Source: an uncultured beta proteobacterium (lineage in GTDB: Bacteria; Pseudomonadota; Gammaproteobacteria; Burkholderiales; Casimicrobiaceae). Taken from it: a DNA stretch of 64,000 nucleotides. A program made the translations under genes and the position numbers. The notes beneath the pieces are model-generated. The model was not told the DNA's origin. It did not search any database and was given only the letters and a program-made list of their open reading frames with translations. Shown piece after piece: positions 15,925 through 29,447 of the stretch; within the stretch, counting starts at the first letter, position 1; each line of letters starts with the position of its first letter. The DNA lies in the NCBI GenBank assembly GCA_963697485.1, contig CAVOOD010000007.1, positions 190,611-254,610 of the forward strand, given 5' to 3'.

Positions 15925-16011
15925 CGCGGCGCGTAGCGCCTCGTTGCGGCGTAGGCTAACCTGCGCACGCAGGTTAAGCGCGCAGCGCGGCCGAAGCCAA
16001 AATCGCCGCGG

Positions 16012-25860: not shown

Positions 25861-27312
25861 TCAGCCGAGCATTTTCTTCAGCGCAGCGTTGACCTCGATC
25901 GGATTCGCCTTGCCCCGGCTTGCCGCCATCGCCTTGCCGACCAGCGACTGGAAAGCCTTGTCCTTGCCGGCCTTGTACTCGGCGACGATCGCTGCGTTGG
26001 CGGCGAGCACGTCGGCGACAATCTTCTCGATTGCGCCGACATCGGAAATCTGCCGCAGACCCCGCGCGGCGATGATCGCGTCGGCGTCGCCTTCGCCCGC
26101 CCACATCGCATCGAATACCTCTTTGGCGAGCTTGCCCGAAATCGTGCCATCTCCGATACGCCGCAGCATGCCGGCCAGCAACGTCGAAGACACCGGCGCG
26201 TCGGCGATATCGATCTCCGCTTTGTTGAGCGCAGCCGACACTTCCCCGAGCAGCCAGTTGCCGGCCAGCCGAGGATCGACGCCGGCGGCAACGAGCCGCT
26301 CGAAATAGGTGGCCATTTCGCGGCGGGAAACCAGCATTGCCGCTTCCGCCGCCGGCAACGCGTACTCGCGCACCAAGCGTGTCTGCATCGCCTCCGGCAG
26401 CTCGGGCATCTGGGTGCGAATCCGTTCGATCCATGCCTCGTTGATCGCCAGCGGCGGCAGGTCGGGATCGGGAAAATAACGGTAGTCCTGCGCGTCCTCC
26501 TTGCTGCGCATCGAGCGCGTCTCGCCGCGGTCGGGGTCGTACAGACGCGTTTCCTGCACGACGGCGCCGCCGTCCTCGATCAGCTCGGTCTGCCGGCGCA
26601 CCTCGAAATCGATCGCCTGCTGCAGAAAACGGAAGCTGTTCAGATTCTTGATCTCGCAGCGCGTGCCGAGCTTCGCCTCGCCTTGCCGGCGTACCGAGAC
26701 GTTGGCGTCGAAGCGGAAGCTCCCTTCCTGCATGTTGCCGTCGCAGATGCCGATCCAGCGCACCAGCGCGTGCAGCGTCTTGGCGTAGGCGACGGCTTCG
26801 GCGGCCGAGCGCATGTCCGGCTCGGACACGATTTCGAGCAGCGGCACGCCGGCGCGGTTCAAGTCGATGCCGGTCATGTCGTGGCCCGGCGTTCCGGGCG
26901 AGGCAATTCGCTCGTGCAGCGACTTTCCGGCGTCCTCCTCGAGATGCGCGCGCGTCAGCGCGATACGGATCTCGCCGCGGGTCGGCGACACGATCGCGAT
27001 CGATCCGCCCTGCACGACCGGTATTTCGTATTGCGATATCTGATAGCCCTTCGGCAGGTCGGGGTAGAAGTAGTTCTTGCGCGCGAACACGCTCTTCCGG
27101 TTGATCGCTGCCCCCGCGGCCAGGCCGAAGCAGATCGCGCGATCGACCGCGCCTTTGTTCAATACGGGCAGGACCCCGGGCAGTGCAATATCGACGGCCG
27201 AGGCCTGCGTGTTCGGCGCGGCGCCGAACGCCGTTGACGCGCCGGAAAAGACCTTCGATGCGGTCGACAGTTGCGCATGGGTCTCCAGCCCGATGACGAC
27301 TTCCCAGGTCAT
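25861..27312 (-). CDS. gatB: Asp-tRNA(Asn)/Glu-tRNA(Gln) amidotransferase subunit B
   Basis: [44 protein letters not shown] and a C-terminal YqeY-like tail. Confidence 0.95.
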
Positions 27313-27503
27313 CGGACTTCCCTCCGCGCTGCGCGCTTCGGGGCTGATTCGTGCTCCGGGCGGCCCTTCGCGGTCATTGAACTTCCCTCCGCGCTGCGCG
27401 CTTCGGGGCTGATTCGCGCTCGGGGCGGCCCTTCGCGGTCATTGAACTTCCCTTCGCGCTGCGCGCTTCGGGGCTGATTCGCGCTCGGGGCGGCCCTTCG
27501 CGC
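27309..27503. repeat. Three abutting 65-bp tandem repeats filling the gatA-gatB intergenic space
   Basis: Units lie at 27309-27373, 27374-27438 and 27439-27503, with 2-5 mismatches between units. On the coding (minus) strand each unit carries an RBS-like GGAGGGA/GAAGGGA and ends in caATGAcc. Confidence 0.95.
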
Positions 27504-28979
27504 TCATGGCGCGAACTCCGGCGGCACGCGGCGATGCCAGTCGGTGACCTGTTGATAGCGATGCGCGGCGTTGAGGATTTGCGCCTCGGCGAAGTGATTG
27601 CCCTGGATCTGGAGGCCGATCGGCAGGCCCGCGTCGTCGAATCCGCAGGGAATCGACATCGCCGGCGCCCCGGTCAGGTTGCCAGCGATGGTGAAAATGT
27701 CGTTCAGATACATCTTGACCGGATCGTCGCTCTTTTCGCCGAGCCGGAAAGCGGCCGTCGGCGACGTCGGTCCGACGATCAGGTCGCAGCTTTCGTAGGC
27801 GCGGCGGAAATCGTCGGCGATCAGCCGGCGTACCTGTTGCGCCTTCAGGTAGTAGGCGTCGTAGTAGCCGTGCGAGAGCACGTAGGTCCCGACCAGGATG
27901 CGGCGCTTGACCTCGGCGCCGAAACCTTCGGCGCGGGTTTTCCTGTACATGTCGTCGAGATCGCCGTAGCTCGCCGCGCGATGCCCGTAGCGCACGCCGT
28001 CGAAGCGCGACAGGTTGGACGAGGCCTCGGCAGACGCGATCACGTAATAGACGGGGACCGACAGGTGCACGTTCGGCAGGCTCACGTCGACCGTGACCGC
28101 GCCGAGCCGGCGGAATTCGTCGAGCGCGGTCTCGATCGCCCGCGCTACGGCGGCGTCGGTCCCGTCGCCCGCGTACTCGCGCGGCAGGCCGATGCGCAAA
28201 CCCGCCAGCGGCTTGCCGGTCGCCGCCGCGTCGATGTCGCGCGAGTAGTTCTCGCGTGGCCGGTCGAGGCTGGTCGAGTCGCGCGCATCGTGGCCGGCCA
28301 TCGCCGTCAGGAGCATTGCGCAGTCGGCGGCCGTCTGACCGAAGACGCCCGGCGTATCGAGACTCGACGCGAAGGCGACGAGCCCGTAGCGCGAGCACAC
28401 GCCATAGGTCGGCTTGATGCCGCACACGCCCGACAGCGCCGCCGGCTGTCGAATCGATCCCCCGGTGTCGGTGCCGGTCGCCGCGGGGACGAGCCGCGCC
28501 GCGACCGCCGCCGCCGACCCGCCCGAGCTGCCGCCGGCCACATAGTCGGCGTGCCACGGGTTCCTGACCGGGCCGAAATAGGAGTTTTCGTTCGACGAGC
28601 CCATCGCGAACTCGTCCATGTTGGTCTTGCCGACAAGCACCATGCCCGCGGCCGCCAACTGTTCGACGACAAAGGCGCTGTACGGCGCGACGAAGTTTTC
28701 CAGCATCCGCGAGCCGCAAGTCGTCTTGAGCCCCTCGGTCATGATGACGTCCTTGTGCGCGATCGGGATGCCGGTCAGCGCGCCGGCGTCACCGCGGGAG
28801 CGCTGGGCGTCAGCCGTCCGGGCTGCGGCGAGCGCGCGCTCGCGGTCTAGCGTCAGGAAGGCATTGAGGCGGCGGTTGGCCCGCTCGATGCGGACGAACA
28901 ATCCTTCGACCAGCTCGACGCTGGACAAGCGCCTGGAGGCGAGCGCCTGCGAAAGCTCGGTGAGCGGTGCGGTAATCAT
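27504..28979 (-). CDS. gatA: Asp-tRNA(Asn)/Glu-tRNA(Gln) amidotransferase subunit A
   Basis: Amidase signature [25 protein letters not shown] and [15 protein letters not shown]. Confidence 0.95.
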
Positions 28980-29087: not shown

Positions 29088-29375
29088 TCACTCGATGACC
29101 CTGGGGACCAGATACAGGCCGTCTTCGACCGCCGGAGCGCCCTGCTGATAGAGCGCGTGACGATCGCTTTCGGTGACCCGGTCCTCGCGCAGCGGCAGGA
29201 CGACGTCCTGCGCATGCGACATCGGAACGATGCCGGTCGTGTCGACGGCGCGCATGCGGCCGATCAATTCGAAAATGCTTTCGAGCTTGGCGCGCACGTC
29301 GGCGGCTTCAGCCGGCGTGATCTCGATCCGGGCCAGATGTGCGATGCGCCGCACTTCGTCGAGGGAAAGGGCCAT
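29088..29375 (-). CDS. gatC: Asp-tRNA(Asn)/Glu-tRNA(Gln) amidotransferase subunit C
   Basis: [24 protein letters not shown]... is typical of GatC. The ATG at 29375 is preferred over the ORF-track start. Confidence 0.88.
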
Positions 29376-29447
29376 TGTTTTAGGCTCGCCACCAAAATTG
29401 CGGTGCAGAAACAAAGCTGAATAGGGTATCATAATCACTTGTCATAA

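Follow-up and report, generated by a model that had tools for sequence, protein, structure and literature searches.

A three-unit tandem repeat between gatA and gatB of an uncultured betaproteobacterium, probably an array of a dispersed MIRU-like intercistronic element

Described repeats at gene junctions and the gatA-gatB spacer

Mycobacterial interspersed repetitive units (MIRUs), reportedly described by Supply et al. in 1997 and summarized in later reviews, are the repeats to which we compare here the spacer between gatA and gatB of an uncultured betaproteobacterium. The spacer lies on contig CAVOOD010000007.1 (assembly GCA_963697485.1), and the stretch of 64,000 nucleotides that was analyzed around it (positions 190,611 to 254,610) is called the window in the following. 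MIRUs are repeats of ~40-100 bp located between operon genes at some 40-50 sites per genome, often in tandem, with a copy number that varies between strains and with 4-nt direct repeats at filled sites (PMC12548453, PMC3184786). They insert at start codons, and their short open reading frame (ORF) is coupled to the gene at -4 nt, which limits the cost of the insertion (PMC12548453, PMC3184786).

The spacer measures 195 nt, in an operon on the minus strand. It is probably an array of three tandem copies of a repeat of the Burkholderiales that is dispersed, intercistronic, non-autonomous, ~65 nt long, and designed like the mycobacterial MIRUs. By analogy with these, the best reading is that of a selfish repeat of variable copy number that would keep the flanking genes translationally coupled. 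The preliminary description of the locus, which knew of no comparable arrangement, overlooked the MIRUs, which have been described in these terms (PMC12548453, PMC3184786). Like MIRUs, the element occurs in many dispersed copies per genome (several separate loci per metagenome-assembled genome, MAG), lies between co-oriented genes and is oriented with them (44 of 52 arrays), and carries a short ORF that overlaps the upstream stop and the downstream start at -4 nt, with four ATGA overlaps in the window. Also like them, it forms tandem arrays whose copy number varies between lineages (0, a 42-nt remnant, 1, 2, and 3 at gatAB) and has a tetranucleotide direct repeat at filled sites. It differs from MIRUs in its host, which is betaproteobacterial (Casimicrobiaceae-like) and not actinobacterial or mycobacterial. 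In the Burkholderiales family, moreover, units of 65 nt predominate, covariation supports a hairpin at the 5' end, and the 3' start is preceded at 7-8 nt by an explicit GGAGG. We do not claim strict membership of the MIRU family proper: the likeness is one of architecture, as published for MIRUs, in another host phylum, and homology is not expected.

The nearest described betaproteobacterial repeat is the beta-proteobacterial repeat element (BRE) of Hot et al. 2011, which is ~75-91 bp long with T-run ends (PMC3110155). BREs, which occur in Bordetella and Comamonadaceae, are intergenic and often in tandem, differ in copy number from genome to genome, and in some cases overlap the ends of ORFs (PMC3110155). 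They have in common with the present family the Burkholderiales host and the short GC-rich motifs GGGCCGCCC and GCGCAGCG, but they lack RTGA termini, and neither a mini-ORF nor a coupling architecture has been described for them. Similarity to BRE was not significant: a search with nhmmer of the family profile against three published BRE sequences gave -0.7 to -1.7 bits, whereas shuffles reach 4.5 bits.

Repetitive extragenic palindromes (REPs) and bacterial interspersed mosaic elements (BIMEs) are also small, GC-rich, hairpin-forming, often intercistronic, and present in many copies. However, REPs are extragenic palindromes, typically alternating in BIMEs and associated with REP-associated tyrosine transposases (RAYT). 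The units of the window do not fit this class: they follow one another head-to-tail, strictly in the orientation of the genes, extend over coding stops and starts, and contain only a short internal hairpin. Miniature inverted-repeat transposable elements (MITEs) such as the Correia/NEMIS elements (cited in PMC3110155 and PMC3184786) resemble the element in being small, dispersed, and non-autonomous, and in having a short stretch duplicated where they insert. This class was also set aside, the element having no terminal inverted repeats, and tandem head-to-tail arrays and stop/start registration not being MITE features. Finally, the design recalls termination-reinitiation via short upstream ORFs, reviewed under translational coupling (PMC12548453). 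As in such ORFs, the stop of the short ORF overlaps the next start (ATGA, -4), and the product would be irrelevant, translation delivering or unmasking the downstream start; what differs is that a repeated and apparently mobile DNA element carries the short ORF, in chains of up to three. The window has the prerequisites of this coupling at the level of sequence, i.e., -4 overlaps, Shine-Dalgarno (SD) motifs, and a stem over the gatB AUG. Our literature search, whose coverage is incomplete, found no papers on the present family, on its peptide motifs, or on MIRU-like elements in Betaproteobacteria. The family itself thus appears to be undescribed, and the finding is one of an instance of a MIRU-like family, not of an invention specific to gatCAB.

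The array and its counterparts in relatives

The spacer separates gatA (27504..28979; TIGR00132 equivalog, E 2.5e-178, 593.6 bits against a cutoff of 481, also in the ORF list) from gatB (25861..27312; NF004014 GatB equivalog, E 7.4e-228), which starts with ATGACC (MTWEVV); both genes are on the minus strand. Tandem Repeats Finder reported at 27307-27507 a period of 65, with 3.1 copies, 95% matches, 0% indels, and a score of 360, by far the strongest array in the window. A 56-nt pattern of the unit, with up to 3 mismatches, matched the window exactly 3 times, against 0.00 expected in shuffles. The units, all 65 nt long and on the minus strand, were delimited by Tandem Repeats Finder, alignment, and translation. 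They occupy 27443..27507 (unit 1, starting with ATGAGC), 27378..27442 (unit 2, starting with ATGACC), and 27313..27377 (unit 3), and the family profile presented below matches them with E-values of 2.2e-19, 1.6e-18, and 1.1e-16, respectively. In their alignment, the per-column identity is 97%, ATGA stands at each boundary, and pairs of units differ at 2-5 positions.

Each unit contains a mini-ORF of 22 codons on the minus strand: mini-ORF 1 at 27439-27507 (stop included), read by translation, and mini-ORFs 2 and 3 at 27374-27442 and 27309-27377, which the ORF listing also gives as 22-aa ATG ORFs. The TGA stop of gatA (27504-27506) overlaps the ATG of unit 1 (27505-27507), and the TGA of mini-ORF 3 (27309-27311) overlaps the ATG of gatB (27310-27312). 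The sequence, the ORF list, and Tandem Repeats Finder thus confirm the three head-to-tail 65-nt units, the three 22-codon ORFs, and the four consecutive ATGA overlaps previously reported for this spacer, and the peptides given then are exactly our translations. The purine-rich SD reported for every unit can also be read from the sequence, each time 7 nt before the next ATG and on the minus strand: GAAGGG in unit 1 (27450-27455), GGAGGG in unit 2 (27385-27390), and GGAGGG in unit 3 (27320..27325), the last one preceding the gatB ATG.

To place the array among its relatives, we read the gatA-gatB junctions in the contigs encoding the closest GatA proteins. These are 86-92% identical and come from metagenomes and MAGs named Casimicrobiaceae or Betaproteobacteria. 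Three lineages (L001, L002-L005, and L012) have 0 units and a direct gatA/gatB overlap, GCGCC-RTGAGC-TGGGA. Contig L118 has a 42-nt remnant of a unit, lacking the hairpin and in frame with gatB. One unit is present in the nearest relative (L116, 92%), in L081, and in L020, and two units in L006-L009 (four independent assemblies), L023, L029, L068, L093, and L117. Among the junctions compared, only that of the window has three.

At filled sites, the insert lies between ATGAGC and TGGGA, and every unit closes with a new ATGAsC. Filled sites thus differ from empty ones by a foreign insert of ~59 nt and a duplicated ATGAsC: the ATGA found once at empty sites flanks the insert at both ends as a direct repeat. 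At all filled sites gatB starts with ATGACC, versus RTGAGC (MSWEVV) at all empty ones. Since the unit resembles neither the end of gatA nor the start of gatB, the spacer is no duplicated junction. Hence, the earlier view that the gatA-gatB junction had been triplicated does not hold. In the GatB tree, filled and empty states interleave, and its 153 shared columns are too few to separate an ancestral insertion followed by losses from repeated insertions.

Some of these relatives show rearrangements within the units. In L118 (2973-3017), the hairpin is deleted between GCGCGAA direct repeats, and the ATG of the remnant, if used, would add 14 residues. L006-L009 encode the same GatA protein in four samples, and each assembly places the variants CTGGG/AAGGG, GAG/GGG, and AATCAG/AATTG differently in its two units; L009 has its 65- and 66-nt units in the opposite order. 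These patterns suggest either that units underwent gene conversion or that assemblers resolved mixtures of strains in different ways.

The end of the array also contributes to a stem around the gatB start codon. The repeat search found there an inverted repeat of 8 bp, CCGATGAC / GTCATCGG, with 100% complementarity and a loop of 10 nt (27290..27315 on the minus strand, arms 27290-27297 and 27308-27315), which is the terminal helix in the fold of the whole region. It owes its existence to ACC as the second codon and to the TCCG that ends unit 3, and the full stem cannot form in empty-site relatives (ATGAGC). The stem may have a role in coupling, as far as can be read from the sequence.

A dispersed element in register with its flanking genes

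We scanned one genome per species for the exact 20-mer GCCCCGAAGCGCGCAGCGCG, which was invariant in all units seen until then, and found this core in 101 stretches of the genome collection. Some are chance matches inside genes of unrelated high-GC bacteria, and others belong to a different, longer repeat of Xanthomonadales that has the core in common. The majority come from Burkholderiales, Casimicrobiaceae, and MAGs of uncultured beta proteobacterium, and have the layout RTGAGCGCG(AA/CC)GGGCCGC(T)CCC(G/A)AGCGCGAAnnn-core-GAGGGTAGTCCA-RTGA. This element stands at many different gene junctions, at several loci per genome, and often in tandem: SJ348 has it on six contigs, MFD04944.bin.1.190 at three loci, and MFD09730.bin.3.37 in four arrays. 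The fetched flanks contain about one further array per 100 kb, and a family profile built from 63 copies gave 122 matches in the fetched DNA. The arrangement is therefore not peculiar to gatCAB, the same element being found at many operon junctions.

A sister subfamily is present in cultured Variovorax. In Variovorax paradoxus, a copy reached through a weak BLAST match measures exactly 65 nt from an ATGA to a GTGA; in the depositors' annotation, the ATGA ends one ABC permease gene and the GTGA starts the next. Variovorax sp. PBL-E5 has another copy at the start codon of a hydrolase gene, whose SD and start seem to be derived from the element.

Genomic context was studied in 57 non-redundant arrays, where the flanking frames were judged by the length of the open frame and the phase signal of the GC content at third codon positions (GC3). 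In 44 of 52 arrays, the element and the two genes beside it share a strand. The end of the upstream gene coincides exactly with the 5' TGA of the element in 39 of 54 cases, and the start of the downstream gene with the 3' RTG in 35 of 55; both ends are in exact register in 25 of 52, when ~1 in 6 would be expected by chance for frame and strand. These counts are conservative, since the profile overlooked additional divergent units in several of the arrays that failed. The arrays comprise one unit (37), two (16), or three (4), and three-unit arrays were found at other loci (L038, L056, and L106). The flanking genes are operon partners in the case of nuoL-nuoM, mutL-mutE (glutamate mutase), and a DUF2868-DUF3482 GTPase pair, as they are for the two ABC permease genes of Variovorax paradoxus; another flanking pair consists of two alpha/beta hydrolases.

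The lengths of the units are also biased. Among 62 unique units, 39 have 65 nt, 10 have 66, 5 have 63, 4 have 62, and 1 has 64, with three outliers, so that the length modulo 3 is 2 in 45 units, 0 in 16, and 1 in a single one. When the frame opened by the first RTG was followed in the 26 doubly coupled arrays, it closed in 21 of them on the TGA overlapping the downstream start and joined the downstream gene in frame in the other 5; no array had an early stop or an out-of-frame entry into the gene. This outcome suggests, indirectly, that ribosomes read the units and that the frames harmful to the downstream gene have been removed. The preliminary description had proposed to look for the repeat in related genomes, and had considered that its dispersal would make the ORF reading incidental. 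The element is indeed dispersed, at many junctions and several times per genome, but the ORF reading is not incidental for that, since the family as a whole displays the RTGA-to-RTGA layout, has an SD built in, and avoids 3n+1 lengths.

The family alignment revealed further conserved features. The motif GGAGGG followed by RTG is nearly invariant. At unit positions 5-27, a 5' hairpin (GCGC-GAA-GGG-CCGC-CCC-GA-GCGC) is supported by covariation in the family; on the minus strand of the window it corresponds to 27481..27503 in unit 1 and, by equivalence, to 27416-27438 in unit 2 and 27351-27373 in unit 3. Its stem is paired in 93.4% of the cells versus 88.4% in shuffles and has 14 double-sided changes versus 3.0 (0 of 500 shuffles as high), with much lower values in slid controls; the compensatory changes are C:G to U:A, and G:C to C:G and A:U. 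The minimum free energy structure of a single unit recovers the stem (-9.9 kcal/mol, z -0.7). In RNAalifold's own consensus there are no covarying pairs, the covariation being in the hand-named 5' stem only.

On the operon strand, a unit is thus composed of an RTGA, a small GC hairpin, the conserved core, GGAGG, 7-8 nt, and a second RTGA. The first RTGA is both the stop of the upstream frame and the start of the unit's own short ORF, and the second both the stop of this ORF and the start of the downstream frame. By occupying a pre-existing RTGA stop/start overlap, the element would let the upstream gene keep its stop and provide the downstream gene with a fresh SD and start codon. Ribosomes coming from gatA would re-initiate, or new ones would load at the SD of each unit, translate 22 codons, stop at the next ATGA, and repeat this up to gatB. 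Because translation would be relayed through the units, the insertion would be cheap for the operon and tolerated. Copy number would drift by slipped-strand or unequal recombination between units, and the relay of four overlaps is an automatic result of the design of the element together with tandem amplification. A neutral product of slippage had been suggested before: this does not account for the origin of the unit, given that the element is dispersed elsewhere, but it is a likely route for the changes in copy number.

We infer that the element is, or formerly was, mobile, and that it is selfish or neutral and not adaptive. The odds seem about even for a broader proposal. In this view, an undescribed family of elements is widespread in Burkholderiales, both in uncultured Casimicrobiaceae and their relatives and, as sister subfamilies, in cultured members of the Comamonadaceae such as Variovorax. 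It would specifically colonize RTGA overlaps with its own SD and start, as the convergent equivalent of MIRUs, with selection acting on translation through the element.

Several points weigh against these interpretations. In the window, the family profile matches the three gatAB units only, i.e., a single array. The family set was found by an exact 20-mer, so that its copies are biased to one subfamily and the conservation of the core is circular. The length statistics overstate independence because many 66-nt units have the same T insertion and may stem from one master copy, and because 7 of the 26 arrays of the frame test are the gatAB site itself; with ~18 independent loci, the probability of the outcome under a neutral expectation of one-third is (2/3)^18, or ~7e-4. 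The translation of the units by ribosomes is deduced from their sequence. The array is no more stable than shuffles, either as a whole (z +0.21), as a single unit (z +0.30), or as the hairpin alone (z -0.70 as RNA, -0.95 and -0.01 as DNA). Finally, we identified no transposase, terminal inverted repeat, or other mobilization machinery, and the term mobile therefore refers solely to the dispersal of the element and to the difference between empty and filled sites. In particular, no terminal inverted repeats join the unit ends, and the only palindromes found were internal, GC-rich, and of 70-77% complementarity.

Alternative readings and further observations

The units might instead be an adaptive tuner, their number being selected to set the GatA:GatB ratio, with each reinitiation step or SD altering the translation of gatB. 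The variation of the copy number at gatAB from 0 to 3 among close lineages would fit this idea, as would the SD of each unit and the 8-bp stem around the gatB AUG, which could make gatB dependent on upstream translation. We nevertheless regard it as unlikely. GatA and GatB work in a complex of fixed stoichiometry, GatCAB, the relatives with 0 units manage without the element, and the same element is found in 1-3 copies at many unrelated junctions, as expected for a passenger.

It is improbable that the unit is a REP-like structural element with a function at the RNA or DNA level (mRNA stabilization, processing site, or protein binding site), in which the chaining of ORFs would be a side effect of its location in operons. 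The conserved hairpin with its compensatory changes speaks for such a role, and REP elements are intercistronic and can stabilize the upstream mRNA (cited in PMC3184786). Yet, the hairpin is a short one whose stability does not exceed that of shuffles, the units are head-to-tail and not alternating as in BIMEs, and Rfam gave no match at E up to 1. Moreover, a structural role predicts neither the exact registration with stops and starts nor the avoidance of 3n+1 lengths.

One may also ask if the three copies in the window result from an assembly artefact, the true number being 1 or 2. The window appears to come from an uncultured Burkholderiales lineage, with a best GatA identity of 92%, the exact GatA and GatB of the window are not on record elsewhere, and no independent assembly was found. 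In addition, the unit-unit junction of the window has no match in metagenome contigs, and three units at gatAB were seen nowhere else. An artefact has nonetheless little chance of being the explanation. Short-read assemblers tend to collapse tandem repeats and not to expand them, arrays of three units exist at other loci, and the three units are no collapsed or expanded identical repeat, since they differ at 2-5 positions. That independent assemblies of related lineages have 1 or 2 units at the same site implies that this type of array is not an artefact.

That the units encode a functional peptide (22 aa, rich in Arg/Lys) made in three copies is very improbable, although a small basic peptide was among the options of the preliminary description and the ORFs are open, intact in most copies, and each equipped with a start codon and an SD. 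The frame changes from copy to copy: 66-nt units fuse frames, and in the two-unit lineage the 65- and 66-nt units either merge into one ORF of 44 aa or lengthen GatB in frame by 22 aa. Compensating +1/-1 indels turn PERES into SRARI, and L118 retains only the 42-nt remnant. The entropy at the three codon positions, taken outside the ascertained core, is 0.46, 0.53, and 0.39, which makes the third position no more variable than the others, and nonsynonymous codon differences dominate over synonymous ones by ~4 to 1 (1018 vs 253). The peptide sequence is thus without constraint.

Purely local slippage, in which the gatA-gatB junction itself was duplicated and the repeat is nowhere else, is hardly credible: it would suit a head-to-tail array of 95% identity whose copy number changes locally, and can account for the passage from 1 to 2 to 3 copies, but not for the first copy, as the unit matches neither the gatA nor the gatB end and the same element is at dozens of other junctions and in Variovorax.

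With the spacer read as an array of a MIRU-like element, an oddity in an essential operon is explained as a tolerated passenger and not as a regulatory device specific to gatCAB. This suggests that the strategy of MIRUs, a repeat inserting at a stop/start overlap with its own ribosome-binding site and start, arose independently in Betaproteobacteria. The scarcity of out-of-frame lengths and the presence in culturable Variovorax make the family a convenient natural system to study termination-reinitiation. For genome annotation, units of 3n length create spurious or real N-terminal extensions, and the variable copy number could provide variable number tandem repeat (VNTR) markers for uncultured soil betaproteobacteria. 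If the family does colonize overlaps and translation through it is selected, then stop/start overlaps would be a general safe harbor for selfish DNA in bacteria, and the element a natural, portable coupling cassette.

The family seems wider than the units described so far. The 59-nt unit of L017, the 74-nt unit of L095, and L114 1493-1561 are sister subfamilies with a common 5' half (RTGAGCGCGCCGGGCCGCCCCAAG...) and different 3' halves (…TACCGCAGTGCGAAGCACGGAGGT… or …TTGCTCCCTCTCGGAGGGATGGCGCGCAGCGCCAAGGG…), all ending with an SD-like motif and then RTGA. Sister subfamilies with common 5' halves and unlike 3' halves imply that the family is modular and wider than the 20-mer scan shows. On plasmid 3 of Variovorax sp. 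PBL-E5 (L115 1-1600), a gene of an IS110-family transposase lies just upstream of the unit, which is flanked by a 22-nt direct repeat (GGAGGTTGCCTTATGAGCGCCG), far longer than the 4-6 nt at gatAB. Three elements in MAG contigs (L051 3904-4041, L097 3675-3816, and L101 7121-7258) are cut after the core and GAG by an identical sequence, CAACCGTCTTCCGTGTCAAGCGAGATGAAGTGCTTCG..., and their contigs stop ~140 nt past the cut, as expected for a multi-copy insertion sequence that breaks an assembly with k=141. The sequence may be an insertion sequence that targets the repeat; it had no match in the metagenome scan.

The repeat of Xanthomonadales (L031, L045, L061, L073, L080, L111, and L113; Rhodanobacter, Dyella, Aquimonas, and related genera) has the 20-mer core followed by GAGGGG within another, longer, tandem-prone unit, with the layout GGTTCGACRAATTCG...GGACAGCCGCAGGCTG-core-GAGGGGTGAGGCCCATGGATGGGCC. 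A block of 20-26 nt is thus common to two otherwise unlike repeat families in two orders. In the window itself and in the flanks of the relatives, blastn-short and the family profile found no further copies, except for chance matches of up to 15 nt. One of these, at 15976-15990, is an exact 15-nt match to the core of the unit (blastn-short, E 0.006) without a match to the family profile, and is probably due to chance in GC-rich DNA.

The neighborhood of the array is otherwise the usual one, with gatC upstream of gatA and a divergent mreB. The ORF at 29088..29438 (minus strand) contains gatC, the first gene of the gatCAB operon, as indicated by a match to Pfam GatC at residues 40-111 (E 3.1e-14) and by synteny with L001-L012. 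Its true start is probably internal, since the relatives encode 95 aa.

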